In this document: piece after piece, positions 23,992 to 46,946 of the stretch | Layout of the letters: every line of letters begins with the position of its first letter | Numbering within the stretch: position 1 is the stretch's first letter | Sequence record: MW822008.1 | DNA: 64,000 nt | Strand: one strand, 5' to 3' | Source: Escherichia phage BF17 | Notes under the pieces: model-generated | Database searches by the model: none | Told to the model about the DNA's origin: nothing | What the model saw: only the letters and a program-made list of their open reading frames with translations | Program-made: the position numbers and the translations under genes

Positions 23992-24017
23992 GGGTTGACT
24001 TCGGTCAGCCTTTTTTT
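23992..24017 (+). terminator. intrinsic terminator (GGTTGAC-TTCG-GTCAGCC + T7), member of repeated hairpin family
   Basis: 7-bp stem with TTCG loop followed by TTTTTTT, directly after sigma factor gene. Confidence 0.7.
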
Positions 24018-24551
24018 ATGGGACAAATTTATTAATGGTGATACAATGATCTATGTACAATCACAATGACAGTACTGGTACTGACAATCTTCCCCTACTT
24101 CACTTGAAAATGTAAAGGATAGATGAGCTTTTCATTGTAGCGAACAGCAAAAGAAACCCGTTAGATGTGGGCATAGTTTGAACCCCTCACGGCAATGCGG
24201 CTGTATAAAGAACCACGTTAGGATAGCTGGTGGTTCCTTGATAGACATATAAGGATAACACCTTACGAATTATCTAAGGGAGAGTTATCGAATTTTGTAC
24301 AGGAAAGTTGCGTCCAAAATTTGAGTACTCACATTAAGTATTTGATTGCATAGATACTTAATGAAGATACACTATGTTTAAAAGTGTAGACCGTCATATG
24401 AAACTGAAGTAGAGAGAAACAGGATGACCCGCTTTCGCACTCATTATGAGTAATCTTCAATGCAATAGCTCTGATACCATCAGCGTCAAATTCCCCTCCA
24501 TGCGGGGGGAAGAAAAATCCCTTCCTCAAATCCCGTCAATATTAAAAGTCC

Positions 24552-24580
24552 TTGACAGTTATGATTCATTCGCGTAGAAT
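24552..24580 (+). promoter_or_regulatory. sigma70-like promoter TTGACA-N17-TAGAAT
   Basis: Upstream of ORF 24645 and the HNH gene. Confidence 0.5.
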
Positions 24581-24644
24581 ACGTAGTATTAGAAGCGAAC
24601 AGACATCTCGAAGAGATGGATGATTAACCACTAAGGAATATCTA

Positions 24645-24854
24645 ATGAATTCAGTAATCTTTTTAATTATTGCTCTTTCACCACAATCTGGTGTACAAAT
24701 CACCCCAATGAATTCAATGAATCAATGCATTGCAGTACGTGACAGTACGTATGAACAAGTAAACAGCGTATCACTTAGAACAGTTGGTGAAGAATTAATG
24801 TGGTGTTACAATAGTAATACTAAAGAGAAACTTATTGTTGGACAAACAAAATGA
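24645..24854 (+). CDS. hypothetical protein
   Basis: 69-aa ORF. Confidence 0.45.
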   Translation: MNSVIFLIIALSPQSGVQITPMNSMNQCIAVRDSTYEQVNSVSLRTVGEELMWCYNSNTKEKLIVGQTK

Positions 24855-25078
24855 GTTATGGTGTTCGTTTTGAGATTCGTTCTATTGTTACCAACAACAA
24901 GAAAGAAGCATCGGTGGATGGATCTATACGCGAATTATATCTATCATGTATCCGTGCCAAATCAGAAGCTGATGCATTAGCACAAATGTTTAGTTTTAAT
25001 TTCTTACATGGATACTATTTGGTAAGAGTTATCGAAGTTAAAAAAGTAAATTTTGGGTGTCTTGAAGGAGAACTATGA
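24851..25078 (+). CDS. hypothetical protein
   Basis: 75-aa ORF, ATGA overlap. Confidence 0.45.
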   Translation: MSYGVRFEIRSIVTNNKKEASVDGSIRELYLSCIRAKSEADALAQMFSFNFLHGYYLVRVIEVKKVNFGCLEGEL

Positions 25079-25873
25079 ATGAATACTATTGATGAATTGA
25101 TTCGCCGGAATTCAAAATACTACGAACCATCAGAAATTGTAGGTAACATTACTAAATCTGAGTTCGGCCCAAATACGCGAAAACTCATTCATGTCATGTC
25201 TCGTGATGGCTTTAAATGTGATTGTTGTGGTGAATCCAATGTGGTATTCACTTTGCATAAACACAGTACTAAAGACCGTTATAAATTCAGACCTTATGTA
25301 CTTAAAGGGAAACGCCTTGTACGCATGACGTTAGACCATAATGTACTGGACTGTCTCCAGGGCGGTAATGATAAAGAGAACATGACTGCACTGTGTGAGG
25401 ATTGTAACGCATTACGCCAGCATAAGTTTGCTGAGTACAGTGAGTTTAAACACTGGTATCATAACGCGGATCGTTCAATTGAGCCGGACGTTAACTACTG
25501 CTTTATTGAGTACATTAAGAATGCCAAAGATACATACATTCTAAAATCAATGTCACCTATTACAGTGTTCCCTGAGAATCTATTCAGTACTATGCAGCGT
25601 GATTTTAAACGTGGTATCATGAATGCATTCAAACACTTAGACAAAGGTATCAAGCACTTTGAGGTGCAATGCTTAAATGAAGGAATGAATCGTTTAGTAC
25701 AAATTTACATGAAATCATTTATAGGTGTTGACAACGCACGTCTACCAGTATATAATTACTTCATTGAAAGCGAAGAAGGTGAATCACTTCGTGATTATGG
25801 TGAAAGATTTAATAATAAAGTCTTCACTGCAATCGCAAACGAGATTCATTACTATAAACCGTATGTAATTTAA
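25079..25873 (+). CDS. HNH endonuclease (freestanding homing-endonuclease-like)
   Basis: CDCCGE zinc motif then LDHNV...GGNDKENMTALCEDCNALRQHK matches the HNH pattern; GAAGGAG RBS. Confidence 0.75.
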   Translation: MNTIDELIRRNSKYYEPSEIVGNITKSEFGPNTRKLIHVMSRDGFKCDCCGESNVVFTLHKHSTKDRYKFRPYVLKGKRLVRMTLDHNVLDCLQGGNDKENMTALCEDCNALRQHKFAEYSEFKHWYHNADRSIEPDVNYCFIEYIKNAKDTYILKSMSPITVFPENLFSTMQRDFKRGIMNAFKHLDKGIKHFEVQCLNEGMNRLVQIYMKSFIGVDNARLPVYNYFIESEEGESLRDYGERFNNKVFTAIANEIHYYKPYVI

Positions 25874-25887
25874 TTAGAGGATATATC

Positions 25888-26070
25888 ATGCAAATCATCA
25901 TTCTTATCGTAGGTATCATTCTTGGTGTATATGGTCACTCCTGGATGAACGAGAAGTTCCCTAATACCCGTCCTGAGTATTGCAGTACTAATGTATTCCA
26001 GAATGGTGAGAAACCAAAGGATAGTATTGGTAAGAAACTGGACAAAGTACTTGACGTAATCAACGAATAA
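25888..26070 (+). CDS. small membrane protein
   Basis: 60-aa ORF with N-terminal hydrophobic helix. Confidence 0.45.
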   Translation: MQIIILIVGIILGVYGHSWMNEKFPNTRPEYCSTNVFQNGEKPKDSIGKKLDKVLDVINE

Positions 26071-26079
26071 GGGTAAAGT

Positions 26080-26280
26080 ATGTTTAAATCAAATACAAAT
26101 GTTGGTAAGAAGGTTCAATTACTTGAGGATGTATCCACTATGAGTGGAACCTTCACTAAAGGTCACATCATGACTATTATTGCCGAAACATCCCGTGGGT
26201 GGGATTTGGAAGATGCTGATGGTAATCGCATCCTTGAGGCTGGATACTTTGGTCATATTGAATATAAAATCCTTGATTAA
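26080..26280 (+). CDS. hypothetical protein
   Basis: 66-aa ORF. Confidence 0.5.
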   Translation: MFKSNTNVGKKVQLLEDVSTMSGTFTKGHIMTIIAETSRGWDLEDADGNRILEAGYFGHIEYKILD

Positions 26281-26375
26281 GGATGCAACATGACTTTAGA
26301 GATTGTCTTTGGTATTGTTAGCTTAGTCGTCTGTGTGGGTTGGTTTGGGTATCTGATGATTTTTGGTGATTAATA

Positions 26376-26403
26376 CTTGACATAAGATATCAGTACTGTA
26401 TAA
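26376..26403 (+). promoter_or_regulatory. sigma70-like promoter TTGACA-N16-TATAAT
   Basis: ...CAGTACTGTATAATGTTTATATCAAA, shared with 26725 and 41550. Confidence 0.6.
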
Positions 26404-26449
26404 TGTTTATATCAAACGACACCCACTTTAACAAATAATAGGAAATATT

Positions 26450-26728
26450 ATGTCTTTTACCAAAGAAGAACGTGACCTTATTAAAAAAGCAATCTGGTTT
26501 TATGCTAATGAAGGGGAGTGCGATGAAGAAAAAGCACGTGAACTGTGTAATATCCTTGAGCAGAAACAAGAACTGAAAGTTTATCGTATCCGTGTTTTGG
26601 ATGACGGGGATCGTATTGTCCTAGCTGAAACAAAAGAAGAAGCAGAACAAATCTTCACTGATAAAAACGAAAATCCACATTGGATGGAAGAAGTCTGTGA
26701 AGTAAAAAAAGGTACTTATATCGATTGA
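26450..26728 (+). CDS. hypothetical protein
   Basis: 92-aa ORF. Confidence 0.55.
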   Translation: MSFTKEERDLIKKAIWFYANEGECDEEKARELCNILEQKQELKVYRIRVLDDGDRIVLAETKEEAEQIFTDKNENPHWMEEVCEVKKGTYID

Positions 26729-26753
26729 CTGTACTGAATAATAGCAGTATAAT
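26725..26753 (+). promoter_or_regulatory. sigma70-like promoter TTGACT-N17-TATAAT
   Basis: Same family as 26376. Confidence 0.55.
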
Positions 26754-26846
26754 GTTTATATCAAAGGGAATGCAGTGAAAGGAAAGACAGCATAATCGTA
26801 CTCGTCACTGCGTTTCCACCCTTTTAAATTAAATGAGGAATTAACT

Positions 26847-27155
26847 ATGTTTCAAACTAACACTCAAGGTTTTGTAATCATCGATTTGAACCAAAACAGC
26901 GGTTATTGGATGAAACCTACTGACGCATGTATGCAGTTTGATTTTTTAGGTTACAGGATTAGTGTAAGTACTGGTGCTTCTGTACTGCGTGGTGGTTGTA
27001 TCGTTGAACATCTGGTAACTGATCCAGAAGGTCGTGAGTATGAAATCGCAGGTTCAGTACAAGATGCCATTATGTTTGTATGTCAGCGTGAAATGAATAG
27101 TTCGAATTCAAATGCACTGACTCATGCTCTTTCTCAAGAAGTGGAGGTTCGTTAA
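26847..27155 (+). CDS. hypothetical protein
   Basis: 102-aa ORF, GAGGAA RBS. Confidence 0.6.
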   Translation: MFQTNTQGFVIIDLNQNSGYWMKPTDACMQFDFLGYRISVSTGASVLRGGCIVEHLVTDPEGREYEIAGSVQDAIMFVCQREMNSSNSNALTHALSQEVEVR

Positions 27156-27406
27156 TGAAATATATCGTAGCAGTACTCGTTGCATTTTTACTCACTGCAT
27201 GTGACGCTTCAACAAAAGAACGCACAAGTGATTTTATTCTCCCTATTGAATTACAAGAAGCAGGATGTAAGATTTATCGTATGCAAAAGGACGGTGCTGG
27301 TGTAACCTTGTATACAGTTTATTGCCCTAATGCAAATACCAGTACTGGATACAGCAGCGGTAAAACACGAATCAATACTTCAGTGATTAATGGAGTACAA
27401 CAATGA
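27155..27406 (+). CDS. putative lipoprotein
   Basis: Signal peptide ending in lipobox-like LTAC. Confidence 0.6.
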   Translation: MKYIVAVLVAFLLTACDASTKERTSDFILPIELQEAGCKIYRMQKDGAGVTLYTVYCPNANTSTGYSSGKTRINTSVINGVQQ

Positions 27407-27771
27407 GCCTTGATACAACCCGTGCAACAGATTTATTAACTCGTATGAATAATGAAGAATTTCTTGCTGAAATAAAGTACAAGCTTGAAAAACTGGCACG
27501 AAGTGCTGAAGTAATTGAAGTTGAAGGTCACTTACCAATGGACCAATTCAATACGTTCAACGAAGATATGGTTTATTATCCAAATGAAATTTGGATTGAG
27601 TGGGAGTCATGGACTAACAAAACTCTACGCATTGAAGGTTATTGTGTGAATTATGAATCTGAACCTGGTGATGTTACAAAAACTCTCTCCATTTGGTGTA
27701 CAAAAACACATGAACTCGTTGAGGTGAATTTGAATTATATGAAAGGTTTCCGTTGGGGTGATGTTCAATGA
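27403..27771 (+). CDS. hypothetical protein
   Basis: 122-aa ORF, ATGA overlap. Confidence 0.6.
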   Translation: MSLDTTRATDLLTRMNNEEFLAEIKYKLEKLARSAEVIEVEGHLPMDQFNTFNEDMVYYPNEIWIEWESWTNKTLRIEGYCVNYESEPGDVTKTLSIWCTKTHELVEVNLNYMKGFRWGDVQ

Positions 27772-28043
27772 TTAAAAAACTATTGACAGTTGTCTTTGTA
27801 TTCTGTACAATGTTTCTTACAGCATGTAATGATGACGGCAGGTTTAGTGCAAAAGACTTAGTTCGTCAGGATTGTACATTCACAGGTAAGTCTTTTATTA
27901 ACGAGTATGAAATATGTACACAATCAGGTCGTATCTGTGGTGGTTGGGAAAAACGTCAGGAGCGATTGTATGTATATGAATGCCCTGGTCATCTCAACAA
28001 AGTACTAAGCACACACAAACTTGTTTATGATAAGGTTGAATAA
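27768..28043 (+). CDS. putative lipoprotein
   Basis: Signal peptide ending in LTAC lipobox-like motif. Confidence 0.6.
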   Translation: MIKKLLTVVFVFCTMFLTACNDDGRFSAKDLVRQDCTFTGKSFINEYEICTQSGRICGGWEKRQERLYVYECPGHLNKVLSTHKLVYDKVE

Positions 28044-28258
28044 TGACTACCAATGAAATGATGCAGGTTATTTGGGATAAAGGTTGCGATCTTAAAATCA
28101 CCAGTACTGATGTTCGTGTATTCAAAACTGAATATATGGAGTACTTGGACCTTGATACTTATAATAATATTGTATCAATTGAACACAAAGGTGCAGTACT
28201 GGAAACAATTGACGTAGTACTGAAGAAAGCTACCGACCTATTAGGAGCGGCAGTGTGA
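28043..28258 (+). CDS. hypothetical protein
   Basis: 71-aa ORF. Confidence 0.55.
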   Translation: MTTNEMMQVIWDKGCDLKITSTDVRVFKTEYMEYLDLDTYNNIVSIEHKGAVLETIDVVLKKATDLLGAAV

Positions 28259-28401
28259 ATAACAAAGAGTGGGAAGAGTACCGTAAGAAGTGCAGGGAGT
28301 TTGATAAAGAACTAACTGGTACAGTGAATGCAGTAATGTGGGTATCTGTAATTATTGCAGTTCTTGCGTTGGGTGCTATTATTATTAATAAATTATTCTA
28401 A
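28255..28401 (+). CDS. small membrane-anchored protein (GTG start)
   Basis: 48-codon frame from GTG 7 nt after AGGAG; C-terminal hydrophobic helix; not in ORF track. Confidence 0.4.
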   Translation: MNNKEWEEYRKKCREFDKELTGTVNAVMWVSVIIAVLALGAIIINKLF

Positions 28402-28411
28402 GGCGAATATC

Positions 28412-28612
28412 ATGTTTACTTTATATCTCGCAGTAGTTCTCACCAATGGTGAAATCACTCGTACTATTGGTGAAGGTGTATATAAAACACCAGACCAGTG
28501 CTACTCTGCTACTCATTGGCCTCGCGATAGTGGGGATGAAACTCGCACTGAATTCAAATGCATGAAAGTAAAAGGTGATTTTGTTAACCTTAAGGTTATC
28601 GAGGCGAAATAA
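28412..28612 (+). CDS. hypothetical protein
   Basis: ORF track 28355-28612 trimmed to ATG 28412. Confidence 0.5.
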   Translation: MFTLYLAVVLTNGEITRTIGEGVYKTPDQCYSATHWPRDSGDETRTEFKCMKVKGDFVNLKVIEAK

Positions 28613-29127
28613 TGGATATTAATGAGTTGTTGATCTTATTGTTTAATCGTGGAAATGATGTAAGACGTTCTGAATATCAAGACAAAATTCACATTGAAAC
28701 TGATAAATGTTATGGTAAAACAACTCATGAGATTTTGAAGCCAAATGGCAAACGATATGCCGATGTATGTTTTCATGAACGAAGTGATGGTAGTGAAATA
28801 ATCAGTACTGAAATTGTGTTTTATGATAGATCCTCGGCAGGTTCGTATGAAATAGAACTTATATATTGTCCTGGTTCAGAAACACACAATAAACGTCAGA
28901 TATTATATGATGTTTATTCACCTCCAGGTGTAGCTGAATATTTTGTTATTGATTACAGTACTGAAGAAAGTGTGTTTCAACAGAGCTTGATTCATAACTT
29001 CCAGTTGAATGATCCAAATGTACCAAAGTTGTTCAAACTACTCGATACTATCGATGTTGATTTTGAATTTGTTATGTGCATTAGAACTTCCTTGATCGAT
29101 GAATTTATGGAACTACTTAATATATGA
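28612..29127 (+). CDS. hypothetical protein (EE-x-F-Q motif family)
   Basis: 171-aa ORF; STEESVFQQSLI motif. Confidence 0.65.
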   Translation: MDINELLILLFNRGNDVRRSEYQDKIHIETDKCYGKTTHEILKPNGKRYADVCFHERSDGSEIISTEIVFYDRSSAGSYEIELIYCPGSETHNKRQILYDVYSPPGVAEYFVIDYSTEESVFQQSLIHNFQLNDPNVPKLFKLLDTIDVDFEFVMCIRTSLIDEFMELLNI

Positions 29128-29345
29128 ATCGTTACTACATTGTGTATGAGCATGTATCTGAGTTTAATAATGTACGTGGTTATAAGAAAGAAGTACAGAA
29201 GATTGATGTATTTGTTCGTGCATTAAGTCCAACACATGCACTATTTAAATTGTTTGATGAAGTAACTAAGTACAACACACCAAAAACACAACGCTATATT
29301 GAAACAGTACATAGTGTAATACTCACTGAATATGATGGAGAATGA
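29124..29345 (+). CDS. hypothetical protein
   Basis: 73-aa ORF, ATGA overlap. Confidence 0.55.
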   Translation: MNRYYIVYEHVSEFNNVRGYKKEVQKIDVFVRALSPTHALFKLFDEVTKYNTPKTQRYIETVHSVILTEYDGE

Positions 29346-29348
29346 CAA

Positions 29349-29567
29349 ATGAATTTATATCTAGTTGAAGGGTCAGTACAAGTATCCAAGCAAGACGGAG
29401 AAGGGTATCGTTTTTCACATGTAGAATATTTTAAGTACGTAGTAAAGGCCGATGGTCAGTACGACGCAGAAATTCAGGTTGAAGAATCATTCCGTAAGAA
29501 GAATGATATTGGTAAATTTGAATACCAAGACTTACAATTCACTGTATGGCCTAGCATTAATGACTAA
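29349..29567 (+). CDS. hypothetical protein
   Basis: 72-aa ORF. Confidence 0.55.
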   Translation: MNLYLVEGSVQVSKQDGEGYRFSHVEYFKYVVKADGQYDAEIQVEESFRKKNDIGKFEYQDLQFTVWPSIND

Positions 29568-29806
29568 GATGTGGTGGTGTCATGGTGTCTACAATGTCTA
29601 TGAATATGGTAGATTCAAAATGAGCAGCACCTATGCCAGACGTGTTAATGCGAAAAACCAAGTTGATGCTGCTTGTGAGATTGTAGAGTGGTATGCAGAG
29701 TTCAATGCCATTGATTTTATGTACGAAATAGTTACAATAAATGTTGTACAAATTGACACGTCTTTGATATAATAACTGTATCAAAACAACCGCAACTGAG
29801 GATACT

Positions 29807-30469
29807 ATGTTAGTTAATCTTAATTTCATCACTTCTCCTGATTGGGCATTGCGTGGTGTTTCTTTGAACTTTAAAGAAACTAATTTCGACAACATTGGTG
29901 ATTGTACTTTAGTTAATGCTACATTTGATCCTCATCATCCTTTTTGGGCTGAAATTCATGATCCTAATGTAAACAATAGTACATCTGTTATGACTATTGT
30001 ACAGACGAAACATACAGGTATCCTCGCAGGTTACAGACCAGGACATGCGATTGAACACTTCACTGATTATGATGTAGTGGATGAGTATCCAATGATCCAT
30101 GAAGATGGAAGTTTATACACGTCAGAAGACTTCCGTGCTATCTTTAATAGTACTGATAACATTCTACCAAGTGGTCGTCCACGCCCTGAGTCTTATCTTA
30201 TGCACTCGTCTTATGGTGTAGCAGATACGCTTGAACAGATTTTGACGAAGTACAAGAACCTTATTGAAGGTCCAGAAGAAATTGTCATGTGCTATCATCC
30301 AGTCCTGAAGTCTGACCAACCAGAGAGTGGTGGGTGGCGTTGGCATAAGAATGGTGAGTACATTGGTACTAAGCGTAGTAAAGAACGCTTTGAGTACTTG
30401 TATGATGAGCCAGATGTTGAGGTTGTTTTATGTTATAATTTTCTTAAGGTGAAAAAGAAATGTATCTAG
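29807..30469 (+). CDS. hypothetical protein
   Basis: 220-aa ORF, GAGGA RBS. Confidence 0.7.
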   Translation: MLVNLNFITSPDWALRGVSLNFKETNFDNIGDCTLVNATFDPHHPFWAEIHDPNVNNSTSVMTIVQTKHTGILAGYRPGHAIEHFTDYDVVDEYPMIHEDGSLYTSEDFRAIFNSTDNILPSGRPRPESYLMHSSYGVADTLEQILTKYKNLIEGPEEIVMCYHPVLKSDQPESGGWRWHKNGEYIGTKRSKERFEYLYDEPDVEVVLCYNFLKVKKKCI

Positions 30470-30702
30470 TATTGAGTTTTGTAGTTGCATTATTGTTTAT
30501 GTTCTACCCTACACTAGTAGCAGTAGCCACTAAACGAAAGCTGGTGGATATCACTACTGTATTCTTGCTAAACGTGGCACTCGTTCTAGTGTCTATTATC
30601 ATTCCCGTGAGCTTTACGGTTATTGATATGGCATCTGTATTACTATTCGTCTTCAGTTATCTTATGCTTATTGAAGAAAAACCTGTTGACAAACGTTTGT
30701 AG
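30460..30702 (+). CDS. small membrane protein
   Basis: 80-aa ORF, hydrophobic. Confidence 0.55.
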   Translation: MYLVLSFVVALLFMFYPTLVAVATKRKLVDITTVFLLNVALVLVSIIIPVSFTVIDMASVLLFVFSYLMLIEEKPVDKRL

Positions 30703-32276: not shown

Positions 32277-32468
32277 ATGTTGATTTATCAATGTGATAAC
32301 ATTCGTGTTATGCAGCATCCATACTTACAAATCTTTGATGTGCAGCAGTATATGGAAGGTGATGATCCAAGAACCTATGGTCGTAAGTATGATTACTTCA
32401 CTGTAAAGCAGTGTCGTGACATCAAAGAAGTACGACAATTAGTTCAAGAACTTCAAAATAAAGGTTGA
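32277..32468 (+). CDS. hypothetical protein
   Basis: ORF track 32247-32468 trimmed to ATG 32277 after GAGGA. Confidence 0.5.
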   Translation: MLIYQCDNIRVMQHPYLQIFDVQQYMEGDDPRTYGRKYDYFTVKQCRDIKEVRQLVQELQNKG

Positions 32469-32494
32469 CTTCGGTCAACCTTTTTTGTTATAAT
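32463..32494 (+). promoter_or_regulatory. terminator hairpin with embedded -35 (TTGACT) and downstream -10 TATAAT
   Basis: GGTTGAC-TTCG-GTCAACC + TTTTTT, then TATAAT 18 bp after the TTGACT hexamer. Confidence 0.65.
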
Positions 32495-32523: not shown

Positions 32524-32964
32524 ATGTACGTATATCGTTTTGAACTTAAATTCAGTTATATTGAACCTAACTTAGATCCAGCAAAAACAGTAGGGCCGTT
32601 CGCACGGTACTCTTCACGATACAGTACTAAAAATGGATTTGACCGTTTGTGCATGACCACGCCTTCGCAATTCCAACCAGAACCAACTGAAGATGGAATC
32701 TATTCAATCAAACGTGGCTGGGCATTTGGCTGTCAGAGTTTGAATGATTTGTTTAAGTTCTTTACTATGGACTTGGGTAAATTACATCGTGCAGGGTTTG
32801 CTGTATCAGTATATGAAGTTCCTGATAATCATGTTGACATTGGTCGTAGTCAGGTTCAGTACTATTGTGGTAGTGCCAATCTGGTTCGTATTATGTCAGT
32901 GAGAGAAGCAAAGGATGAGTACCGCCAAAGTAAAAGAGTAATACATGAGGCTGTATATGGATAA
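32524..32964 (+). CDS. hypothetical protein
   Basis: 146-aa ORF. Confidence 0.65.
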   Translation: MYVYRFELKFSYIEPNLDPAKTVGPFARYSSRYSTKNGFDRLCMTTPSQFQPEPTEDGIYSIKRGWAFGCQSLNDLFKFFTMDLGKLHRAGFAVSVYEVPDNHVDIGRSQVQYYCGSANLVRIMSVREAKDEYRQSKRVIHEAVYG

Positions 32965-36048: not shown

Positions 36049-36055
36049 TTAAAAG

Positions 36056-36088
36056 GGGTTGACTTCAGTCAGCCCTTTGTCGTATAAT
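36056..36088 (+). promoter_or_regulatory. hairpin with embedded TTGACT and downstream TATAAT (weak T-run)
   Basis: GGGTTGAC-TTCA-GTCAGCCC then CTTTGTCGTATAAT. Confidence 0.55.
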
Positions 36089-36257
36089 ATTTTCATCAAG
36101 TGATACAAAATACAAACAACGTGAGGTATTAAATTATGCAAGGTACTAAATTCATCATCGCTGCCCTAATCGCTGCTGTTGTAGTGGGTACAGTATGTTA
36201 TTCAATTGACACCTATATCAATACACCTAGTGTTGAACAAACCAAATAAGGGATATC

Positions 36258-36521
36258 ATGGCTGAAACATTATCACTATATGCGTTAGTACTGTTATTTG
36301 TCGGATTTCTTCCCGCACTCATTACCGCCATTCGTGTTGTTAAACATGAAGCTGCATTGATTGTATGTAGTATTGGGTCGAACATTCTATTGTATTTCTT
36401 TTTGACAAATACTATTGTACTGTTTGCTTTCTTTATCATGATTCTCTGGGTACTTGTAATTCTCGGATTCTTCATTTGGTCATTGGTTGATCCTAAGAAA
36501 AAATCAGGAGAAGTGAAATGA
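36258..36521 (+). CDS. membrane protein
   Basis: 87-aa ORF, hydrophobic. Confidence 0.55.
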   Translation: MAETLSLYALVLLFVGFLPALITAIRVVKHEAALIVCSIGSNILLYFFLTNTIVLFAFFIMILWVLVILGFFIWSLVDPKKKSGEVK

Positions 36522-36814
36522 AATTAATTATTGCAATGATGATGTGTTTGGCTTTCCCTGTACTGGCTACTCCTAATCTGGACTGCACACTGTTGCGTTC
36601 AGATGGTGACACACTTGAAATCAACACATATGAACTCTTTGGTCCAAGTGTAGTGGAGAATGAAACCACCTACAATTTCAAAGCTATTGACTTTGAAGGT
36701 AATGTTCCAGTACTAACTACAATGACTATTGACAAAACTACTTTACTCGGACGAATCACCACACAACGAGGTGAAAGTAAAACATTCACAGCGAAAGCTG
36801 ACTGTAACTACTAA
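36518..36814 (+). CDS. hypothetical secreted protein
   Basis: 98-aa ORF with signal peptide. Confidence 0.6.
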   Translation: MKLIIAMMMCLAFPVLATPNLDCTLLRSDGDTLEINTYELFGPSVVENETTYNFKAIDFEGNVPVLTTMTIDKTTLLGRITTQRGESKTFTAKADCNY

Positions 36815-36836
36815 TGGTATAGTACAGTGAAAATAG

Positions 36837-36867
36837 GGTTGACTTCGGTCAACCTTTTCTTTATACT
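36837..36867 (+). promoter_or_regulatory. terminator hairpin with embedded -35 and downstream TATACT
   Basis: GGTTGAC-TTCG-GTCAACC + TTTTCTTT then TATACT. Confidence 0.6.
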
Positions 36868-36895
36868 ATAAATATAGTCATAGAGAATAAACAAT

Positions 36896-38407: not shown

Positions 38408-38417
38408 ACATTTAAAA

Positions 38418-38449
38418 GGTTGACTTCGGTCAACCTTTTTTTGTAAATA
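38418..38449 (+). promoter_or_regulatory. terminator hairpin with embedded -35; weak -10
   Basis: GGTTGAC-TTCG-GTCAACC + TTTTTTT. Confidence 0.6.
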
Positions 38450-39091: not shown

Positions 39092-39098
39092 AAGAAAA

Positions 39099-39131
39099 GG
39101 GTTGACTTCGGTCGGCCCTTTTTGCTATAAT
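39099..39131 (+). promoter_or_regulatory. terminator hairpin with embedded -35 (TTGACT) and downstream -10 TATAAT
   Basis: GGGTTGAC-TTCG-GTCGGCCC + TTTTT + GC + TATAAT. Confidence 0.65.
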
Positions 39132-39157: not shown

Positions 39158-39571
39158 ATGTTAAAAGTTATTTTCCGTTCTATCAGTTCATTACTTCTTA
39201 TGATTAGTTCAGTTTGTTATGCAAATGAAGTATCTGATTTATTTGAGAAGAATTACCCAACTGCACAAGAGATGGGTGTTTTAAAATGCAAGCTAACTTC
39301 GTACAACATCATCGGCAGTAAACTTGTACTGGAACATGAACGTAGTACACCAATCCCTCTAGTAGAAGAAGGTAGTACCTTTAGCTTCAAGTACGGGGTG
39401 AATGTAACATCTGGTGTAATGAACAATGTTGATGCAGAGACTGGTTCAACATGGAGTACTAGCGGTAAAGATGTGTTTCATCGTATGCGTGAAAATGGTA
39501 AACTGAAGTACGTATATGAAAGTTCATTCATGAAACGTGTATTCATTATAAAAAATTGTGTACCAGCATAA
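39158..39571 (+). CDS. hypothetical secreted protein
   Basis: 137-aa ORF with signal peptide; GGAGG RBS. Confidence 0.65.
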   Translation: MLKVIFRSISSLLLMISSVCYANEVSDLFEKNYPTAQEMGVLKCKLTSYNIIGSKLVLEHERSTPIPLVEEGSTFSFKYGVNVTSGVMNNVDAETGSTWSTSGKDVFHRMRENGKLKYVYESSFMKRVFIIKNCVPA

Positions 39572-40557: not shown

Positions 40558-40558
40558 G

Positions 40559-40903: not shown

Positions 40904-40911
40904 GGGGTGCT

Positions 40912-41169
40912 ATGTTTGCATTGCGTAATAAAAATACAAAAGAGATTCTATGTATCTCAACAGTATGGGATTGTGCAGGAAGTGAAATGATTCTCGAAGA
41001 AGGTTCAGGTGATTGTGTTTATGTTGTACAGGATCGTCGCGAACTGGAATCATTACTTGACGAATTTAATGCTGGTGGAAATCCTAAAAGTACTCAATTC
41101 CCTGAGATCAGGAATCCAGCACCACCAGGCTCTTATGAAATTCTACAACTGTGGGAGATGGATAAGTAA
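40912..41169 (+). CDS. hypothetical protein
   Basis: 85-aa ORF. Confidence 0.55.
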   Translation: MFALRNKNTKEILCISTVWDCAGSEMILEEGSGDCVYVVQDRRELESLLDEFNAGGNPKSTQFPEIRNPAPPGSYEILQLWEMDK

Positions 41170-41429
41170 TGCGTCAAATGCACAAAGTAACCGAGCTAAA
41201 CAAGCGTCTGATTAAACAATCAATGTTTGAGGATAAAGAGTCTTACTATAACTTCAAACGTGCTGTAGAGGCTGCTATCCACATTCAGAAGCTTAAAGAT
41301 AGTGGATGTATTATTCTCGAAAATGGTTCTGACGTTGTTACTGATGACTTCAGTGTAGCGTTTGATGTTTCACCTGATGGTTCGCTATCAATGCCACGCT
41401 TAGGGACTGGTGACATGACTGTGTGGTAG
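41169..41429 (+). CDS. hypothetical protein
   Basis: 86-aa ORF. Confidence 0.55.
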   Translation: MRQMHKVTELNKRLIKQSMFEDKESYYNFKRAVEAAIHIQKLKDSGCIILENGSDVVTDDFSVAFDVSPDGSLSMPRLGTGDMTVW

Positions 41430-41549
41430 GTTTCACTATGGGGAATGTACCAGGCACGGTGTATGTAGATGATGCTGAGTTGAAAGAAAGCTTCAAAAAC
41501 TTATCGCATCTTGAACCACAATACGCACATGAAATGAATTTATTTTGAG

Positions 41550-41577
41550 TTGACAAACTCATTCAGTACTGTATAAT
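41550..41577 (+). promoter_or_regulatory. sigma70-like promoter TTGACA-N16-TATAAT
   Basis: ...TTCAGTACTGTATAATGTTTAT family. Confidence 0.6.
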
Positions 41578-41624
41578 GTTTATCAAGGGGATGAACTTCT
41601 CATCCCCACAATCGAGGAATTGTC

Positions 41625-42179
41625 ATGATTACTTTTAAGAAAACTGCTAACCACATCCATGAGATCTACATTAACGGTCACAAAGCTGGCCTTCTTCGTT
41701 TACTCGCCCATCATCCGAATATTACCGTATCTGATAATGAACCTAAAGATTGGCGTGTATTTTTCTTTGGAAAGTACAGTGATTTTCAAGTATCAAACCT
41801 GAAGAACATTCGTTCAGTATGCACGTTAACTGAAATTAAAGAAAAGTTAACCAAAGCATTGAAAACTAATCCAGATAGTGTTCTTCCACCTGATAACTTT
41901 GTAGAGAAAGGATATGCCTTAGCTCATTTCAAAGATGGTACTATTCAATCTATCAGTACTGAATATGAATATCAATGGACTGAGTACTTCACTTATGGAT
42001 CGCGTAATACATTGATGGCTTCACGTAGTAAATTGGAAGAAGTACTGACTCGTATGAATGAACGCGAGCGTCAATTTTATGACAAACCAGAAATGTGGAG
42101 TTCAACTTACATTGACCGTATTGACTATGTTATTATGACTCCAATCTTTGACACTGCTTACTATGATTCTTTGAAATAA
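41625..42179 (+). CDS. hypothetical protein
   Basis: 184-aa ORF, GAGGAA RBS. Confidence 0.65.
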   Translation: MITFKKTANHIHEIYINGHKAGLLRLLAHHPNITVSDNEPKDWRVFFFGKYSDFQVSNLKNIRSVCTLTEIKEKLTKALKTNPDSVLPPDNFVEKGYALAHFKDGTIQSISTEYEYQWTEYFTYGSRNTLMASRSKLEEVLTRMNERERQFYDKPEMWSSTYIDRIDYVIMTPIFDTAYYDSLK

Positions 42180-42395
42180 GGATAACTTATATGAAACTAC
42201 GTACTCGTAATCGACTGATGGATGCACTGTACCATGAACAGCTTTCACTGAATGAAGTGAAGCGTCAGTTAATGTACACATATCTGTTACCCGCTCGCAT
42301 TGCAAAACAACGTGCTAAAGAATTGCTGAAAGAAGCAATCGAGTACTGGGAATCTGATTCGTACTAATTGTCACGTTAATTAAGTGAGGCGATAA

Positions 42396-42647
42396 ATGAA
42401 AATTTTATTAGTTCTAATACTACTAATTGTTTTACCATTTACGTTAGTATCTCCTGAACTTGCATGGAATGTGTTTGTGTACTTACTATGTACTATTGTA
42501 GTAAATGGTATCTTGTTCTTAGTTCTATTCATAAATGGAATAGGACACGGTGGAGGATGGACCAGTACTGCTGATATTGTACATAAAACCACTATGTCTT
42601 TATTTGTAGTGTGGAATTTATTCTGGACTTGGTTTGTGTTCTTCTAA
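42396..42647 (+). CDS. small membrane protein
   Basis: 83-aa ORF, hydrophobic. Confidence 0.55.
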   Translation: MKILLVLILLIVLPFTLVSPELAWNVFVYLLCTIVVNGILFLVLFINGIGHGGGWTSTADIVHKTTMSLFVVWNLFWTWFVFF

Positions 42648-42657
42648 TTAAAAAAAT

Positions 42658-43029
42658 ATGAATATAGATTTGAAAGGTGCAACACGAACTGTCATACTCA
42701 TTGGGGAATATGCTATCAAGATTCCAACCTTTAAAAGTTGGAAGCTATTCTTAACAGGGATGATAGCTAACCTCAATGAACGTTCGTGGATGCAGTACTC
42801 CAAGCGTAGTAATAGTGGTATCTGCCCTACGTTGTGGTCATCATGTACTGGACTAGTAACTGTACAGAAACGTTGTAAGCCAGTGCAACATAGGGGTTTA
42901 TTTTGGCTGGAGTTGTGTGCTTTAGCATTGAATTCAGAGTTAAGTGCTGACTTCTTTTATTCAGATGCGAAGCCAGAAAACTTTGGGTATCTGTGTGGTA
43001 AGTTGGTTAAACTTGATTATGGAGATTAA
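42658..43029 (+). CDS. hypothetical protein with protein-kinase-like catalytic motifs
   Basis: AIK near N-terminus, then DAKPENFG (HRDLKPEN-like) and LDYGD (DFG-like) with kinase-like spacing; only 123 aa. Confidence 0.45.
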   Translation: MNIDLKGATRTVILIGEYAIKIPTFKSWKLFLTGMIANLNERSWMQYSKRSNSGICPTLWSSCTGLVTVQKRCKPVQHRGLFWLELCALALNSELSADFFYSDAKPENFGYLCGKLVKLDYGD

Positions 43030-43030
43030 T

Positions 43031-43303
43031 ATGTACGCACTGTATAATAAAGAAAAGAAACGATTTGCTAAGGTTGAAATTTCGATTGATACATTTGACA
43101 TGTTGGAGTACTGTATTGTAACGGACTTATATGCTAACTTGTATTACGTTCTTGATGACGTATCAGTACTGCAACGATTGCTTGAGAATTCCAAAAGTCA
43201 ATGCCAGGGCATCCATGATGGTTCATCTTATGAAACACCTGAGTGTTCCTACGGCTATCTGGACGGGTATGAGATTGTGAAGTTGGGTATTGTTGGATGC
43301 TGA
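43031..43303 (+). CDS. hypothetical protein
   Basis: ORF track 42944-43303 trimmed to ATG 43031 after GGAG. Confidence 0.5.
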   Translation: MYALYNKEKKRFAKVEISIDTFDMLEYCIVTDLYANLYYVLDDVSVLQRLLENSKSQCQGIHDGSSYETPECSYGYLDGYEIVKLGIVGC

Positions 43304-43307
43304 AACA

Positions 43308-43577
43308 ATGACCAATGATGAATTCATGGAATTTATAAAAAATATACAAAGTTCAAAAACTGGAGAAGAAAAAGAAACATATAAATTTAAAAGTTCAATA
43401 ATACTTATGAAAATGAAATTGATTTCTCATACTTTTAATGAGAAGTATGATTTTATCTTTGTGAACAGTGACTACAATGATTTAGTTTATAATATAAATG
43501 TTTTGTGGGAAGAAGAACTACAAAGCAAAATACATACAGTACGAAAACCATTAAAAAATCCTTTCAAAACGGGTTGA
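43308..43577 (+). CDS. hypothetical protein
   Basis: ORF track 43290-43577 trimmed to internal ATG. Confidence 0.45.
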   Translation: MTNDEFMEFIKNIQSSKTGEEKETYKFKSSIILMKMKLISHTFNEKYDFIFVNSDYNDLVYNINVLWEEELQSKIHTVRKPLKNPFKTG

Positions 43578-43603
43578 CTTCGGTCAGCCCTTTTTGCTAT
43601 AAT
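43571..43603 (+). promoter_or_regulatory. terminator hairpin with embedded -35 (TTGACT) and downstream -10 TATAAT
   Basis: GGGTTGACTTCGGTCAGCCCTTTTTGCTATAATCATTTCATCAA consensus copy. Confidence 0.7.
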
Positions 43604-43631
43604 CATTTCATCAAGACGAGAGGATGAATAC

Positions 43632-44147
43632 ATGACACGCATTAACTTAGTACACGTTAAAGAACTTGCTGACCAACATCTGATGGCTGAATATCGTGAA
43701 CTCCCACGTGTGTTTGGTGCTGTACAAAAACATGTTCAAGCACGTAAGCGAGTCCGTGATTTCAAAATTAACAGTACTTACCTGTTAGGTTCAGGTCATG
43801 TAACATTCTTCTACAACAAGTTATTGTACTTACAGAAGCGTCATATTGATATTGTTAACGAATGTTTGCGTCGTGGTATGAAGATTCAAAACACTGAAGT
43901 AAACGACATTAGCGGATTCCCTGCTGAGTTTTGTAATGACTACGTACCATCGGAGTCAGAGATTAAAATGTCTCGTGAGCGTTTGATTGAGAAGATACAG
44001 ATGAAGCCTATGTGGTATAAATTTACTGACGTTGAACGCCCACAGTACGTTAAAGATATGCAGGACGTAAGTGGTGATATAGAATCTAGTACTGATATGT
44101 TCGACGAAATTGAAGAACAAATCAAAGATGAAATGAATAATTATTAA
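43632..44147 (+). CDS. denV: pyrimidine dimer DNA glycosylase / endonuclease V
   Basis: N-terminus [31 protein letters not shown]...RVRDFKI...[10 protein letters not shown] closely matches T4 endonuclease V as I recall it, including Thr2 and Glu23. Confidence 0.9.
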
Positions 44148-44153
44148 AGGAAA

Positions 44154-44186
44154 GGGTTGACTTCGGTCAGCCCTTTTTGCTATAAT
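44154..44186 (+). promoter_or_regulatory. terminator hairpin with embedded -35 and downstream -10
   Basis: Consensus copy of the GGGTTGACTTCGGTCAGCCC cassette. Confidence 0.7.
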
Positions 44187-44212
44187 CATTTTATCAACTT
44201 AAGAGGTAACAC

Positions 44213-44455
44213 ATGAAACTATCTTTTATACGATTAGCAGAATTCTTCGGTACTGATATCATTACTTTACAACAAATTGCAGACAATACTTCATTAAGTA
44301 CACAAGAAGTACTTGACTTAGATGTAATTCAGTGCGATAATACGTCCATCGATTACAAAGAAGGTCTTGTCGAAAAAGATAAGATTCAGGCTAAGATTAA
44401 TGGTGCTGGACGGGTTCAGTACTGGAAAGGAGTTTTAAGTAATGTTAATTTATGA
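44213..44455 (+). CDS. hypothetical protein
   Basis: 80-aa ORF, AGAGG RBS. Confidence 0.55.
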   Translation: MKLSFIRLAEFFGTDIITLQQIADNTSLSTQEVLDLDVIQCDNTSIDYKEGLVEKDKIQAKINGAGRVQYWKGVLSNVNL

Positions 44456-45857
44456 CGAGCTTGGTGTTGGATACCATTTTACCGATGTTGTGCAATTGGA
44501 GGGTGAATATGTACGCGACGCACGAGAAGACACACCACTTGATAAAATAAAAACACTTAATTCACTAATAATAAAAAATATAATACACATTGAATTATTA
44601 CAAGGATTTGTCGTTGATGGCATAGATGAGTATAATAAAAAAAGATATTCTAAAAAATTTCGACAACCAAAATGTAATTTGAAAATAGCATTTTGGTATG
44701 ATGGTTTATTGTTCATTCAAGGTTATAAACAATTTCTTTCCAACTTAAGTTCAGGAAACTATTGTCCGGGTGAAAAAATATATAATTTAGAAAAAACCAT
44801 TTTATCTGCAAAAAATAAACTATCCGGTGGGTGTAGTATAATAACTGGGAATGGTGAGTGGCTGGGGAGAACAAATACTAAACTTTATGCACTCTGCACG
44901 AAAACCAATAAACCTTGGGAATTCACCATCGGTACACAATATTCTCAGAATTGTCCTGACTGTAAAAAAAGCAAAAAAACTAATAAAGACTTAGATGTGT
45001 TTTTTGAACAACAATGTATAAAATTAAATGCAAAATTTATTGGTATTTTCATGTATAATGGTGTAGATAATAGTATTGTCAAATCGGTATGTAATTGTTG
45101 TGGTAATGAACGTATGGATTATGGAATAACGTTTCGTGCGGGCAGTAGAAAAAGTTTATGCCCACTTGAATCAAGCAGAGTAGAAAAAATAAAAAAATCC
45201 CAATACTTACAAAATGAAGTTTTGGAAGAAAAAATAAAAACTGCAATGAAAATCCATAATATAAGATTTGATGATTCTAACAAATTTGAACCTGAGAAAT
45301 ACGCAAATGTCAAAACTACTATTATAAATTATATTGATTCGAGTGGAACCCCTGGTAGTACATGTCTTTCAAATTTGATTTATAATACAGACAAACGAAG
45401 TATTGGTTCAAAAAACATGACTAATGGTGGTGAGTTGTATACAAATTCATTTGGAAATATGTACAAACTAGGTCACACGACAAAAACAAGTCGTAGGATA
45501 TACGAACAAAATTTATCCTTCTCCAAAAAAAATATATTATGGAAAAATGAACTAATTTTAAAGTTTCCTGGTGAAAATGGGTATGGTCGAGCGATTTATT
45601 TTGAAAAAACAATTTTAGATTATGTAAATAATATAATTGATTGGGTGAAAAACGTTCAAAAAACACCAATATTCGCCCGTGGTTGTGTTGACGAAGGTGA
45701 TGGACATACTGAAACATTTTTAAAGATATATGAATCATATTTTAGATATAAATTGAATGAATTGTACTTGACATATAAAGATGAATGGGATATAATTATT
45801 TTCAAAGATGAAAAGAATTTTATTTCTAATACAAGAGATACTAAAAATGACCAATGA
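44442..45857 (+). CDS. hypothetical Cys-rich protein in AT-rich island
   Basis: 471-aa ORF; visibly lower GC than flanks; CPDC / CNCC motifs. Confidence 0.65.
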   Translation: MLIYDELGVGYHFTDVVQLEGEYVRDAREDTPLDKIKTLNSLIIKNIIHIELLQGFVVDGIDEYNKKRYSKKFRQPKCNLKIAFWYDGLLFIQGYKQFLSNLSSGNYCPGEKIYNLEKTILSAKNKLSGGCSIITGNGEWLGRTNTKLYALCTKTNKPWEFTIGTQYSQNCPDCKKSKKTNKDLDVFFEQQCIKLNAKFIGIFMYNGVDNSIVKSVCNCCGNERMDYGITFRAGSRKSLCPLESSRVEKIKKSQYLQNEVLEEKIKTAMKIHNIRFDDSNKFEPEKYANVKTTIINYIDSSGTPGSTCLSNLIYNTDKRSIGSKNMTNGGELYTNSFGNMYKLGHTTKTSRRIYEQNLSFSKKNILWKNELILKFPGENGYGRAIYFEKTILDYVNNIIDWVKNVQKTPIFARGCVDEGDGHTETFLKIYESYFRYKLNELYLTYKDEWDIIIFKDEKNFISNTRDTKNDQ

Positions 45858-46905
45858 ACAAATTATTGATATTTTAAACAAACTTGGATATGATGAAATA
45901 ACAATTAATGTGGATAAATGTACATATGATGTATTTCATCCTAAAAGAAAAATAATTTATACTGGTATGGATTTAAATAAGATCAACTTTAATACAAAAG
46001 CAATAAAATTTCCACCGTTGGATTATAACACAATAAAATTAAGTTGTGAGAATATTTTCAAAGATAGTGAATGTAAATTTTGTTATTTGGAATATAATGA
46101 AAACAAACCAAATGACACAAAAGTTTTTTATTGTGCACCTAAAAGAAAAAAACCAACCAGTATATATTATAGACATTTGGTGAGTGGTGGTATTCGTATT
46201 AATGTTGAATGGGATATTGAAGACATCTATGATAATGTCTTGATTAAAATAAAAGATATGGATGGTTTTGATATTGATCATGTTGAATATAATGAAAAAG
46301 AAACTTCAAAAACTATAATTCATTTTAAACACCCAAATAGATTATTAACAGTTAAAAATGAATTTAGATATATAATGAGAGATAATTGGTCATTAAAAGA
46401 ACCGCAGATTTCATTAGACGAAATAAATGAGATTGGTAAGAAATTTTCAAAAGAACATCCAAAATATAAGTATCTTGGATGTAAAAGATTCAAAGGTTCA
46501 AAATCGATATTATCGTTTGTTAAAATCGATAATGGAAAAATTTGGAATCCATCATATGAATCAATAGTTTATAGTAATATTAACAGTGATGTTGGTGGAT
46601 ATATTGCAAATGATATAAAAAATTTATATATATTTAAAACTGATTCATTTGTTGGAACATTTATATGCAATGAAACAAAATTTAACTTTCATAAAAATGA
46701 AAGGGAGTTTTGGTTGGATGATGGGGAGATTGAGATAATTGGACAATTCAATGAACGATATTCTTTTTTAAAAGGTATTGTAGATACAGTTAATAGTGAA
46801 ATAGAAATAGATCATGATTTAGATATTGTTGGATATACGTGTATTAGGAAAATACATAATATTGAATATATACAACAACGTTGTTATGATTTATTCAATT
46901 TATAA
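45847..46905 (+). CDS. hypothetical protein in AT-rich island
   Basis: ORF track 45808-46905 trimmed to ATG 45847; AT-rich, K/N/I-rich. Confidence 0.6.
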   Translation: MTNEQIIDILNKLGYDEITINVDKCTYDVFHPKRKIIYTGMDLNKINFNTKAIKFPPLDYNTIKLSCENIFKDSECKFCYLEYNENKPNDTKVFYCAPKRKKPTSIYYRHLVSGGIRINVEWDIEDIYDNVLIKIKDMDGFDIDHVEYNEKETSKTIIHFKHPNRLLTVKNEFRYIMRDNWSLKEPQISLDEINEIGKKFSKEHPKYKYLGCKRFKGSKSILSFVKIDNGKIWNPSYESIVYSNINSDVGGYIANDIKNLYIFKTDSFVGTFICNETKFNFHKNEREFWLDDGEIEIIGQFNERYSFLKGIVDTVNSEIEIDHDLDIVGYTCIRKIHNIEYIQQRCYDLFNL

Positions 46906-46913
46906 CAAAAAAA

Positions 46914-46946
46914 GGGTTGACTTCGGTCAGCCCTTTTTGCTATAAT
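46914..46946 (+). promoter_or_regulatory. terminator hairpin with embedded -35 and downstream -10
   Basis: Consensus copy of the cassette. Confidence 0.7.

Follow-up and report, generated by a model that had tools for sequence, protein, structure and literature searches.

Repeated hairpin elements of the Asteriusvirus phage BF17 as probable PeSL-type terminator-promoter cassettes and recombination linkers

Introduction

Promoter-early stem-loops (PeSLs) have been described in the T4-like phages RB49/phi1, T4/PST, and KVP40/nt-1 [Arbiol et al. 2010 (PMC2839356); Comeau et al. 2014 (PMC4122927)]. They are intergenic, combine an AT-rich stretch with a σ70-like promoter and a stem-loop, and fall into five subclasses according to the position of the stem-loop, which in one subclass lies over the -35 (PMC2839356, PMC4122927). 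In RB49/phi1, lacZ fusions revealed both promoter and terminator activity, and recombination between PeSLs gives rise to mini-circles and indels; "half" PeSLs also occur (PMC2839356, PMC4122927). Here, we analyze a hairpin element that recurs nine times in a 64,000-nucleotide (nt) stretch of Escherichia phage BF17 (MW822008.1; one strand, 5' to 3'), which we refer to as the window.

The window comes from an Asteriusvirus jumbo coliphage of the 121Q/PBECO4 group (identity up to 99.5%), and its best matches are Turkey3 (99.5%, over part of the query), vB_Ec-M-J, fEgEco12, and CMSTMSU. The 121Q/PBECO4 jumbo lineage is separate and shares only some T4-like core genes (PMC5259590). The RaK2 genome paper makes no mention of promoters, and in the papers on CBB and PA5oct, promoters are listed apart from terminators. 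We found no description of composite terminator–promoter elements in the literature on the RaK2/121Q group, and a motif search gave no relevant paper.

We propose that the BF17 elements are probably compact PeSL-type cassettes of terminator and early promoter that double as recombination linkers in the Asteriusvirus early block. An initial annotation of the window had pointed out their shared architecture without recognizing it as the PeSL class that had already been described.

Results

We searched the whole window for the 20-mer GGGTTGACTTCGGTCAGCCC, the consensus hairpin GGGTTGAC-TTCG-GTCAGCCC, allowing up to three mismatches (≤3). This gave nine matches, all on the + strand (23992, 32462, 36056, 36836, 38417, 39099, 43571, 44154, and 46914), which together span 23992 to 46933, compared to none in 100 dinucleotide shuffles (chance expectation 0). 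A profile built from the nine copies and run on both strands of the 64-kb window recovered nothing further, only reverse images of the known sites. This confirms the nine plus-strand copies of a ~45-bp element in the initial annotation, in which 32463, 36837, and 38418 denote the same sites off by one base.

All nine copies are intergenic, between the stop of one gene and the Shine-Dalgarno (SD) sequence and ATG of the next, as is typical of PeSLs. Within the ~45 bases of the element, an A-tract (A3–A7) immediately 5' of the GGG is found in 9/9 copies, corresponding to the AT-rich stretch upstream of the -35 in PeSLs, and a T-run of 3–7 T follows the hairpin in all nine. Between the upstream stop codon and the hairpin there are 6–21 nt, unless the stop is the TGA within TTGAC, and the hairpin starts 59–62 nt before the next ATG in seven of the nine copies; thus, the entire intergenic space is one module. 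The stem has 8 bp with 4–5 GC pairs and a C-G-closed tetraloop and is followed by the T-run, all on the sense strand, as expected for an intrinsic terminator. PeSLs are likewise intergenic units of ~50–100 bp with an AT-rich stretch, σ70-like boxes, a GC-clamped stem-loop (G-/C-runs, G·T pairs), SD, and ATG, and the subclass with the stem-loop over the -35 is matched here by nine out of nine stable folds with the -35 in the 5' arm.

As + strand RNA, the nine copies fold into hairpins of 8–13 bp (-12.7 to -19 kcal/mol; z-scores -3.8 to -6.1). Every copy folds as a hairpin followed by a T-run, in agreement with the stem, UUCG-type tetraloop, and U-tract that had been claimed. For the wobble-containing copies, the antisense strand folds 4–6 kcal/mol weaker. 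The GenBank record of the related phage UE-S1 independently annotates the element sites as terminators.

Variation in the stem was assessed in 82 distinct copies, pre-filtered for pairing, from the window, IMG/VR, and seven relatives: Turkey3, vB_Ec-M-J, 121Q, PBECO4, UE-S1, JNE01, and Salmonella phage SD-15_S21. At pair 4, 71 copies have U·G and 9 have U-A; at pair 5, 76 have U-A and 6 have U·G. The outermost pair covaries (GC 57, AU 15, GU 9, UA 1) and is never unpaired. Changes in the arms are exclusively A-to-G opposite U, so the RNA pairing is kept and the DNA palindrome is broken. The loops are UUCG (dominant), UACG, or GNRA, all of which are stable RNA tetraloops. These wobble, outer-pair, and loop patterns appear to be signatures of selection on the sense-strand RNA, modest in the case of covariation because the copies had been selected for pairing and the -35 fixes five pairs. 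Only one stem pair is free to vary, so support for the RNA structure comes mainly from the wobble and loop types.

The same patterns bear on a different explanation, in which GTTGAC-N4-GTCAAC is a palindromic operator over the -35, bound by a dimeric phage or host regulator that shuts early promoters, and the RNA is irrelevant. Inverted repeats over a -35 are classic operator positions, and another promoter family in the window has a palindrome (CAGTACTG) adjoining its -10, so palindromes are common at promoters of this phage. However, the A-to-G change breaks the DNA palindrome in 71/82 copies while the pairing is retained in RNA as U·G, the UNCG/GNRA loops are RNA-stabilizing, and the A-/T-tract flanks and T-run are always present. 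The weaker antisense fold and the use of the hairpin as a stand-alone terminator in bacteria (below) also argue against an operator. We consider this explanation very unlikely; an operator would, in any case, be compatible with terminator-promoter cassettes.

On the DNA side, six copies (32462, 36056, 39099, 43571, 44154, and 46914) contain TTGACT-N18-TATAAT, with a TG extended -10 in all but 36056, and copy 36836 contains TTGACT-N17-TATACT. Compared to TTGACA-N-TATAAT, the six score 11/12 (five with TG) and the seventh scores 10/12. The σ70-like -35 and -10 with ~17-nt spacing that characterize PeSLs are therefore found in seven copies. The initial annotation had placed TTGACT and TATAAT in all nine, which holds for the six copies above; one has TATACT instead, and two (23992 and 38417) have no usable -10. 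Likewise, its string of hairpin, T5, GC, and TATAAT is found at 39099 (with GTCGG), 43571, 44154, and 46914 but not at the other five sites.

In wider searches, which required TTGAC (stem and -35 alike), 101 of 117 unique phage copies have a -10 (A2 and T6; 16–19 nt spacer, in most cases 17 or 18 nt), with TGn in 83 of the 101; the 117 include five reverse images of perfect palindromes. The -10 hexamer is TATAAT in 36 copies, TATTAT in 35, TATACT in 12, and one of a few other sequences in the rest. It varies at positions 4 and 5 but not at 1, 2, 3, and 6, which is the pattern of σ70.

For a bacterial control, one genome per bacterial species was scanned for the same 22-mer hairpin, GGTTGACTTCGGTC(A/G)(A/G)CC(C/T)TTT, and phage copies were chosen by the same pattern. 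This yielded 26 bacterial matches, present as single copies in chromosomes or contigs of several Acinetobacter species, Exiguobacterium, Bdellovibrio, Vibrio, and Bacteroidetes metagenome-assembled genomes. A -10 at 16–19 nt spacing is found in 66 of 75 unique phage copies (58 with TGn) versus two of 26 bacterial copies (Fisher p = 5e-11 for -10 matches of at least 5/6). The bacterial copies are evidently plain, putative terminators. This contrast suggests that the hairpin itself is a generically good terminator, to which phages fuse a -10 so that the 5' arm serves as a -35. The sequence past the -10 is unrelated between phage lineages and, thus, the -10 is not merely carried along.

These data also address the alternative that the elements are terminators only, with TTGACT in the stem being incidental and the downstream genes expressed by read-through or from unrelated promoters. 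The hairpin does occur without a -10 in bacterial chromosomes and in copies 23992 and 38417, and the UE-S1 annotation calls the sites terminators only. However, this alternative does not account for the difference in -10 frequency between phages and bacteria, the σ70-tolerant variation of the hexamer, or the unrelated sequence 3' of the -10 in different phage families. Moreover, if termination is efficient, the downstream genes need a promoter, and there is no other within the 59–62 nt before the ATG. Altogether, we judge a terminator-only role to be quite improbable.

We also considered whether the U·G wobble was selected to destroy a -35 or terminator on the antisense strand. The antisense hairpin does weaken, but promoter-less bacterial copies share the wobble (18/26), so a promoter-specific reason for it is unsupported.

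The elements sit within a + strand block of small genes that also includes a sigma factor, denV, and an AAA ATPase. The window has 41 strong σ70-like promoters, of which all but one are on the + strand; these 40 are all within 1–48.5 kb. The + strand block is evidently the early region, in which the hairpin-bearing promoters form one subclass; many other strong promoters of the block have no hairpin.

The sigma factor raises the possibility that the same anatomy is read by a phage protein rather than by host σ70, which would make the elements delayed-early or middle promoters. The gene for this σ70-family factor (23016-23984, + strand) is directly upstream of the first element, and Pfam detects regions 2 and 3 in its product. 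An extended -10 (TGn) is contacted by σ region 3, and most elements carry TGn. Still, the -35 and -10 are near-perfect for host σ70, which is the simplest route before any phage protein exists, and the element also occurs in phages that are not known to share the sigma factor (Aeromonas 65, CR8, and Brochothrix A9). In relatives, RpoD-like promoters were reported to be concentrated in the presumed early region (PMC5259590). We therefore regard reading by the phage factor as unlikely.

The initial annotation had proposed a search of related genomes, in which absence of the element would speak against it. Elements are present at syntenic intergenic sites in 7/7 relatives, with flank identities of 72–99%. 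Homology between the window and its relatives repeatedly breaks at the elements: it resumes at -4 or -5 of element 7 (43571) in all seven relatives, at -3 of element 8 (44154) in the six of seven that have a breakpoint there, and at -5 to -17 of element 9 (46914) in six. Homology blocks also stop inside the element at 36056 and resume at -6 or -7 of the element at 36836. Based on five relatives, six of 28 breakpoint clusters fall at elements versus 0.85 expected (p = 1.6e-4, uniform null), and breakpoints hit six of nine element-bearing gaps versus four of 19 other gaps (p = 0.035). Like PeSLs, the elements thus lie in variable regions, where indels and replacements that distinguish close relatives begin or end.

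Three cassettes illustrate this turnover. Between elements 3 and 4, the window has a variable cassette (36136..36814, + strand) of a small open reading frame (ORF) plus 87-aa and 98-aa ORFs. In 121Q, PBECO4, and SD-15_S21, this is reduced to one 114-nt ORF, and in UE-S1 the cassette is missing and the flanks overlap on a single hybrid element, a precise loss. The second cassette is denV, which encodes a pyrimidine-dimer glycosylase (43632-44147, + strand; Pyr_excise, E = 9e-15) and stands alone with elements 7 and 8 as its borders. After denV, 121Q, UE-S1, vB_Ec-M-J, and JNE01 have a half element, two ORFs, and a full element where the window has one full element. The half element in these four relatives is AAAGGGTTGACTTCGGTCA joined directly to the ribosome-binding site of another gene.

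The third cassette, between elements 8 and 9 (44213..46905, + strand), comprises three ORFs: a conserved 80-aa ORF (44213-44455), then 471-aa and 365-aa ORFs (44442-46905). The latter pair is AT-rich (GC about 0.30), is common only to Turkey3, and has no Pfam match. It is missing in SD-15_S21, and the remaining relatives have an HNH endonuclease or other ORFs instead; the right end of the pair is always at the element at 46914. The insulation of single genes that had been claimed for denV and the AT-rich island would accordingly take the form of a one-gene cassette and a three-ORF cassette, respectively.

Two further observations concern the cargo. The end of the 80-aa ORF is overlapped by the start of differing large ORFs (an HNH endonuclease or a 488-aa or 474-aa ORF in other phages, none in SD-15_S21), and the slot behind this ORF appears to be a hot slot for cargo exchange. 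In vB_Ec-M-J (stretch L004), free-standing HNH homing-endonuclease genes (27319-27732 and 29492-30607) lie immediately upstream of two elements, where the window has other cargo or none. Homing may contribute to cassette turnover at these sites.

The initial annotation had also suggested a dispersed mobile or regulatory repeat, and cassette indels and replacements do end at the elements. A purely selfish or neutral repeat, resembling a miniature inverted-repeat transposable element (MITE) or repetitive extragenic palindrome (REP) or serving as a homing-endonuclease target, would have spread recently and have no regulatory role. The near-identity of the copies, the HNH genes immediately upstream of elements in vB_Ec-M-J, and the cassette turnover would all fit such a repeat. 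However, the elements occupy orthologous intergenic sites where the flanks are only 72–88% identical, also across genera, and are thus old and maintained. They have a single orientation, which is that of the genes, and a fixed distance to the ATG, and none lies within a gene. Beyond the hairpin there are no terminal inverted repeats or target-site duplications as in mobile repeats. A selfish repeat without function is, in our view, very unlikely.

We also asked whether the element-bearing segment is the most plastic part of the window. It is not: relatives cover 1–22 kb and 49–64 kb to an even lesser extent.

The individual copies, all on the + strand, differ in their details. Element 1 (23987..24018) starts 7 nt past the stop of the sigma-factor gene and consists of an A-tract, a hairpin (GGGTTGAC-TTCG-GTCAGCCT, 23992-24011; minimum free energy -13.9 kcal/mol), and T7. 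It has no canonical -10 (TTTTTTTATGGGAC) and would be a terminator-only "half" copy, and its orthologues in Turkey3, vB_Ec-M-J, UE-S1, and JNE01 likewise have no -10. Element 5 (38412..38443) is a perfect palindrome (38417-38436) followed by T7; it also lacks a canonical -10 (GTAAATAT; region read TTTTTTTGTAAATAT) and would be a terminator-only or degraded copy. Element 2 (32457..32494) has a perfectly palindromic hairpin, AGGTTGAC-TTCG-GTCAACCT (32462-32481), then T6. Its -35 TTGACT is at 32465-32470 and its -10 TGT-TATAAT at 32489-32494; the TGA of the upstream ORF is within TTGAC, and the next ATG is at 32524.

Element 3 (36051..36088) has a UUCA loop in its hairpin (36056-36075, -16 kcal/mol), with the -35 at 36059-36064 and the -10 TATAAT at 36083-36088. 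In element 4 (36831..36874), the hairpin (36836-36855) includes the -35 at 36839-36844, and the -10 TATACT (36862-36867) follows after a 17-nt spacer. This -10 is overlapped by a T4-type late-promoter-like consensus, TATAAATA (36867-36874), and the downstream 503-aa gene is annotated as a virion structural protein in relatives. The gene may have both early and late start signals.

Element 6 (39094..39131) has a hairpin (39099-39118, -18 kcal/mol) whose 3' arm, GTCGGCCC, makes two U·G wobbles; its -35 is at 39102-39107, its -10 TGC-TATAAT at 39126-39131, and the next ATG at 39158. Elements 7 to 9 have the consensus hairpin and TGC-TATAAT. Element 7 (43566..43603; hairpin 43571-43590, -35 43574-43579, -10 43598-43603) lies upstream of denV and is its predicted driver. 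Element 8 (44149..44186) has its hairpin at 44154-44173 (-18.4 kcal/mol), its -35 at 44157-44162, and its -10 at 44181-44186. Element 9 (46909..46946; hairpin 46914-46933, -19 kcal/mol; -35 46917-46922; -10 46941-46946) is the predicted driver of the 256-aa AAA-type ATPase gene (46975-47745, + strand).

Beyond the relatives, a 51-nt element query matched 168 phage records. These include all RaK2-like jumbo phages, with 4–9 places each, as well as Erwinia and Yersinia jumbo phages, Vibrio schizo-T4 phages (KVP40), Aeromonas phage 65 and relatives, Certrevirus (CR8, POP15), a Stenotrophomonas jumbo phage, and Brochothrix phage A9, a member of the Herelleviridae with a Gram-positive host. Phages of Cronobacter have the hairpin as well. 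In KVP40, Vibrio D480, Aeromonas 65, CR8, and A9, the copy lies between genes and precedes a -10, SD, and ATG. The Aeromonas 65 copy shares 32 identical bases with the Asteriusvirus consensus, and the KVP40 copy is 82% identical to the window element. A tblastn search of the flanking genes from these five phages against the Asteriusvirus region gave nothing significant, so co-transfer of cassettes is unsupported. Convergence is plausible because a -35 in the 5' arm leaves few free positions, with constraints on the 3' arm, the C-G-closed UUCG loop, the U-run spacer, TG, and the -10. We tentatively raise the possibility, on balance a doubtful one, that the module AAAGGGTTGAC-TTCG-GTCAGCCC-T5-(TGn)-TAnnnT goes beyond a family-specific PeSL and is either a horizontally traveling plug-and-play insulator or a repeated convergent ~45-bp solution. 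Under either scenario, the module would represent a general rule in the design of large virulent phage genomes.

In IMG/VR contigs of RaK2-like jumbo phages (L012, L020, L023, L024, L030, L039, and L043), several copies precede short ORF-free sequences that share the motif ...CATTGGCAGATA...TAACCCAYWGGGTGC.... These are possibly small RNAs; Rfam at the gathering threshold gave no match for them.

The early region of the window has additional features. Rfam, run on the whole window at the gathering threshold, detected only six tRNAs, with no match at the elements. The six tRNA genes (Ser-tga, Ser-gct, Met, Asn, and two Thr-tgt) are clustered at 7991-12077 in the early + strand block. Element 1, downstream of the sigma-factor gene, is itself followed directly by ~620 nt without an ORF (24020-24640), with a GGGACA-N16-TGATACAAT promoter at the start. 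Relatives conserve this stretch, and a repeat_region is marked there in the UE-S1 record; the fold z-score is only -2.15. Rfam gave no match for this stretch, and a permissive search of 23980-24680 yielded chance-level hits only. It may be a non-coding RNA or a replication or regulatory region.

The promoter family with the CAGTACTG palindrome is a third family on the + strand, TTGAC(A/T)-N8-CAGTACTG-TATAAT-GTTT(A/G)TATC, with -35 starts at 8684, 9105, 10244, 26377, 30686, and 41550. The palindrome adjoins the -10 and could be a candidate regulator-binding site. Its AGTACT core is shared with a hairpin family on the minus strand. There, a second, unrelated composite repeat (52149-61442) consists of the hairpin GCCAGTAC-TTG-ATACTGGC, then TTTTCTTTTT, then TTAAATATAGTATAATGAATAAAGGAGG, with copies at about 52166, 55758, 56965, 58153, 58962, 60224, and 61438. 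It lies upstream of most genes in a tandem array of ~11 RCC1-like paralogues, which are only 25–35% identical as proteins, while their ~70-nt intergenic module is near-identical. This repeat resembles a fusion of a terminator with a promoter (late-like TAAATA / TATAAT) and a shared leader, which suggests that the phage applies the same insulated-cassette strategy, with another sequence, in another gene block.

Discussion

Our analyses suggest how the elements might work. In the + strand RNA, the A-tract, GGGUUGAC, UUCG, GUCAGCCC, and U5 would form a hairpin plus U-run of intrinsic-terminator form, at which transcription from upstream would stop, with the hairpin remaining to protect the 3' end. 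We infer this step from the anatomy, folding energies, and RNA-type sequence variation. In DNA, the 5' arm and first loop base would constitute the -35 TTGACT, the 3' arm and T-run the 17–18 nt spacer, and TGn-TATAAT the extended -10. Host σ70 RNA polymerase would start ~7 nt downstream, producing a ~25-nt leader followed by the Shine-Dalgarno sequence and ATG. The consensus match, the fixed hairpin-to-(-10) coupling found only in phages, and the strand bias of such promoters all point to this step. Together, the terminator and promoter roles would insulate each gene or short gene group as its own transcription unit. Copies 23992 and 38417 would have lost the -10, or never had it, and would act as terminators only. 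As recombination linkers, the ~45–60 bp near-identical direct repeats would supply portable homology for cassette deletion, insertion, and exchange between related phages; the comparative breakpoints demonstrate such changes at the repeats, and we infer recombination between the repeats as its mechanism. Considering position, RNA structure, promoter coupling, and cassettes, the dual function of ending one transcript and restarting the next, as put forward in the initial annotation, appears to be the best-supported reading, with the caveat of the two terminator-only copies.

Several points weigh against terminator-promoter cassettes that double as linkers. We found no transcript 5' or 3' ends (transcriptome) for any Asteriusvirus in the literature, and both activities are predictions. 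For the terminator, the U-run is short (5 U, then GC), which bears on termination efficiency, and covariation is limited to a single pair in copies pre-filtered for pairing. For the promoter, two of nine copies (23992 and 38417) have no -10, a state that corresponds to the published "half PeSL"; the invariance of TTGAC alone cannot separate promoter constraint from stem inheritance; and the phage has its own σ70-family factor (23016-23984), a candidate for the real reader of the promoters. For the linker role, BLAST block ends snap to conserved islands, the relatives are non-independent, and the gap-level p is only 0.035. Neighboring regions without elements are at least as plastic as the element-bearing segment. 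Thus, the elements are not required for genome plasticity; they are junctions but not the sole route.

The elements share with PeSLs their repetition in variable early regions, their position at the ends of indels and replacements, and the presence of degraded half copies. They differ in host, an Asteriusvirus jumbo phage (~350 kb) rather than a member of the Straboviridae, although this difference is circumstantial and not mechanistic. While PeSLs have five variable arrangements, there is one rigid architecture here (-35 in the 5' arm, UUCG loop, and U-run spacer). Also, the activities and mini-circles are experimental for RB49/phi1, whereas here they are predictions from sequence and comparison. 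Because the sequence-level features of PeSLs are all present, we class the elements with the PeSLs; what makes them of interest is the extension to jumbo phages, the rigid single architecture, and the phage-versus-bacterium control.

Other known systems match in part. Intrinsic terminators have the same stable tetraloop, U-run, and GC-rich stem of 8 bp, which A/U flanks can lengthen to 13 bp, but the phage copies are fused to a -10 and their 5' arm doubles as a -35, unlike the bacterial copies, which are without this fusion. The elements resemble σ70 extended -10 and T4 early promoters in TTGACT, the 17–18 nt spacer, TGn-TATAAT, the A-rich upstream sequence, and the location on the coding strand of small early genes; however, the spacer here is the terminator 3' arm and U-run rather than free sequence. 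Lambdoid morons are similarly autonomous, insulated gene cassettes that are gained and lost between related phages, but their promoter and terminator are separate and dissimilar, and there is no shared recombining border repeat.

The control used here, which contrasts phage and bacterial copies of one hairpin by the presence or absence of a -10, could be reused to find composite signals elsewhere, and the ~45-bp module may provide a ready-made, compact insulator part for phage engineering and synthetic biology. For the phages themselves, the elements offer a concrete transcription map of the Asteriusvirus/RaK2-like early region, for which no promoter or terminator mapping exists, with predicted monocistronic or short early units such as denV alone. 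Classing them with the PeSLs would extend that concept beyond the Straboviridae. Insulated cassettes would also explain how orphan-gene cassettes, likely carrying host-takeover or anti-defense genes and homing endonucleases, can be swapped without disturbing their neighbors.

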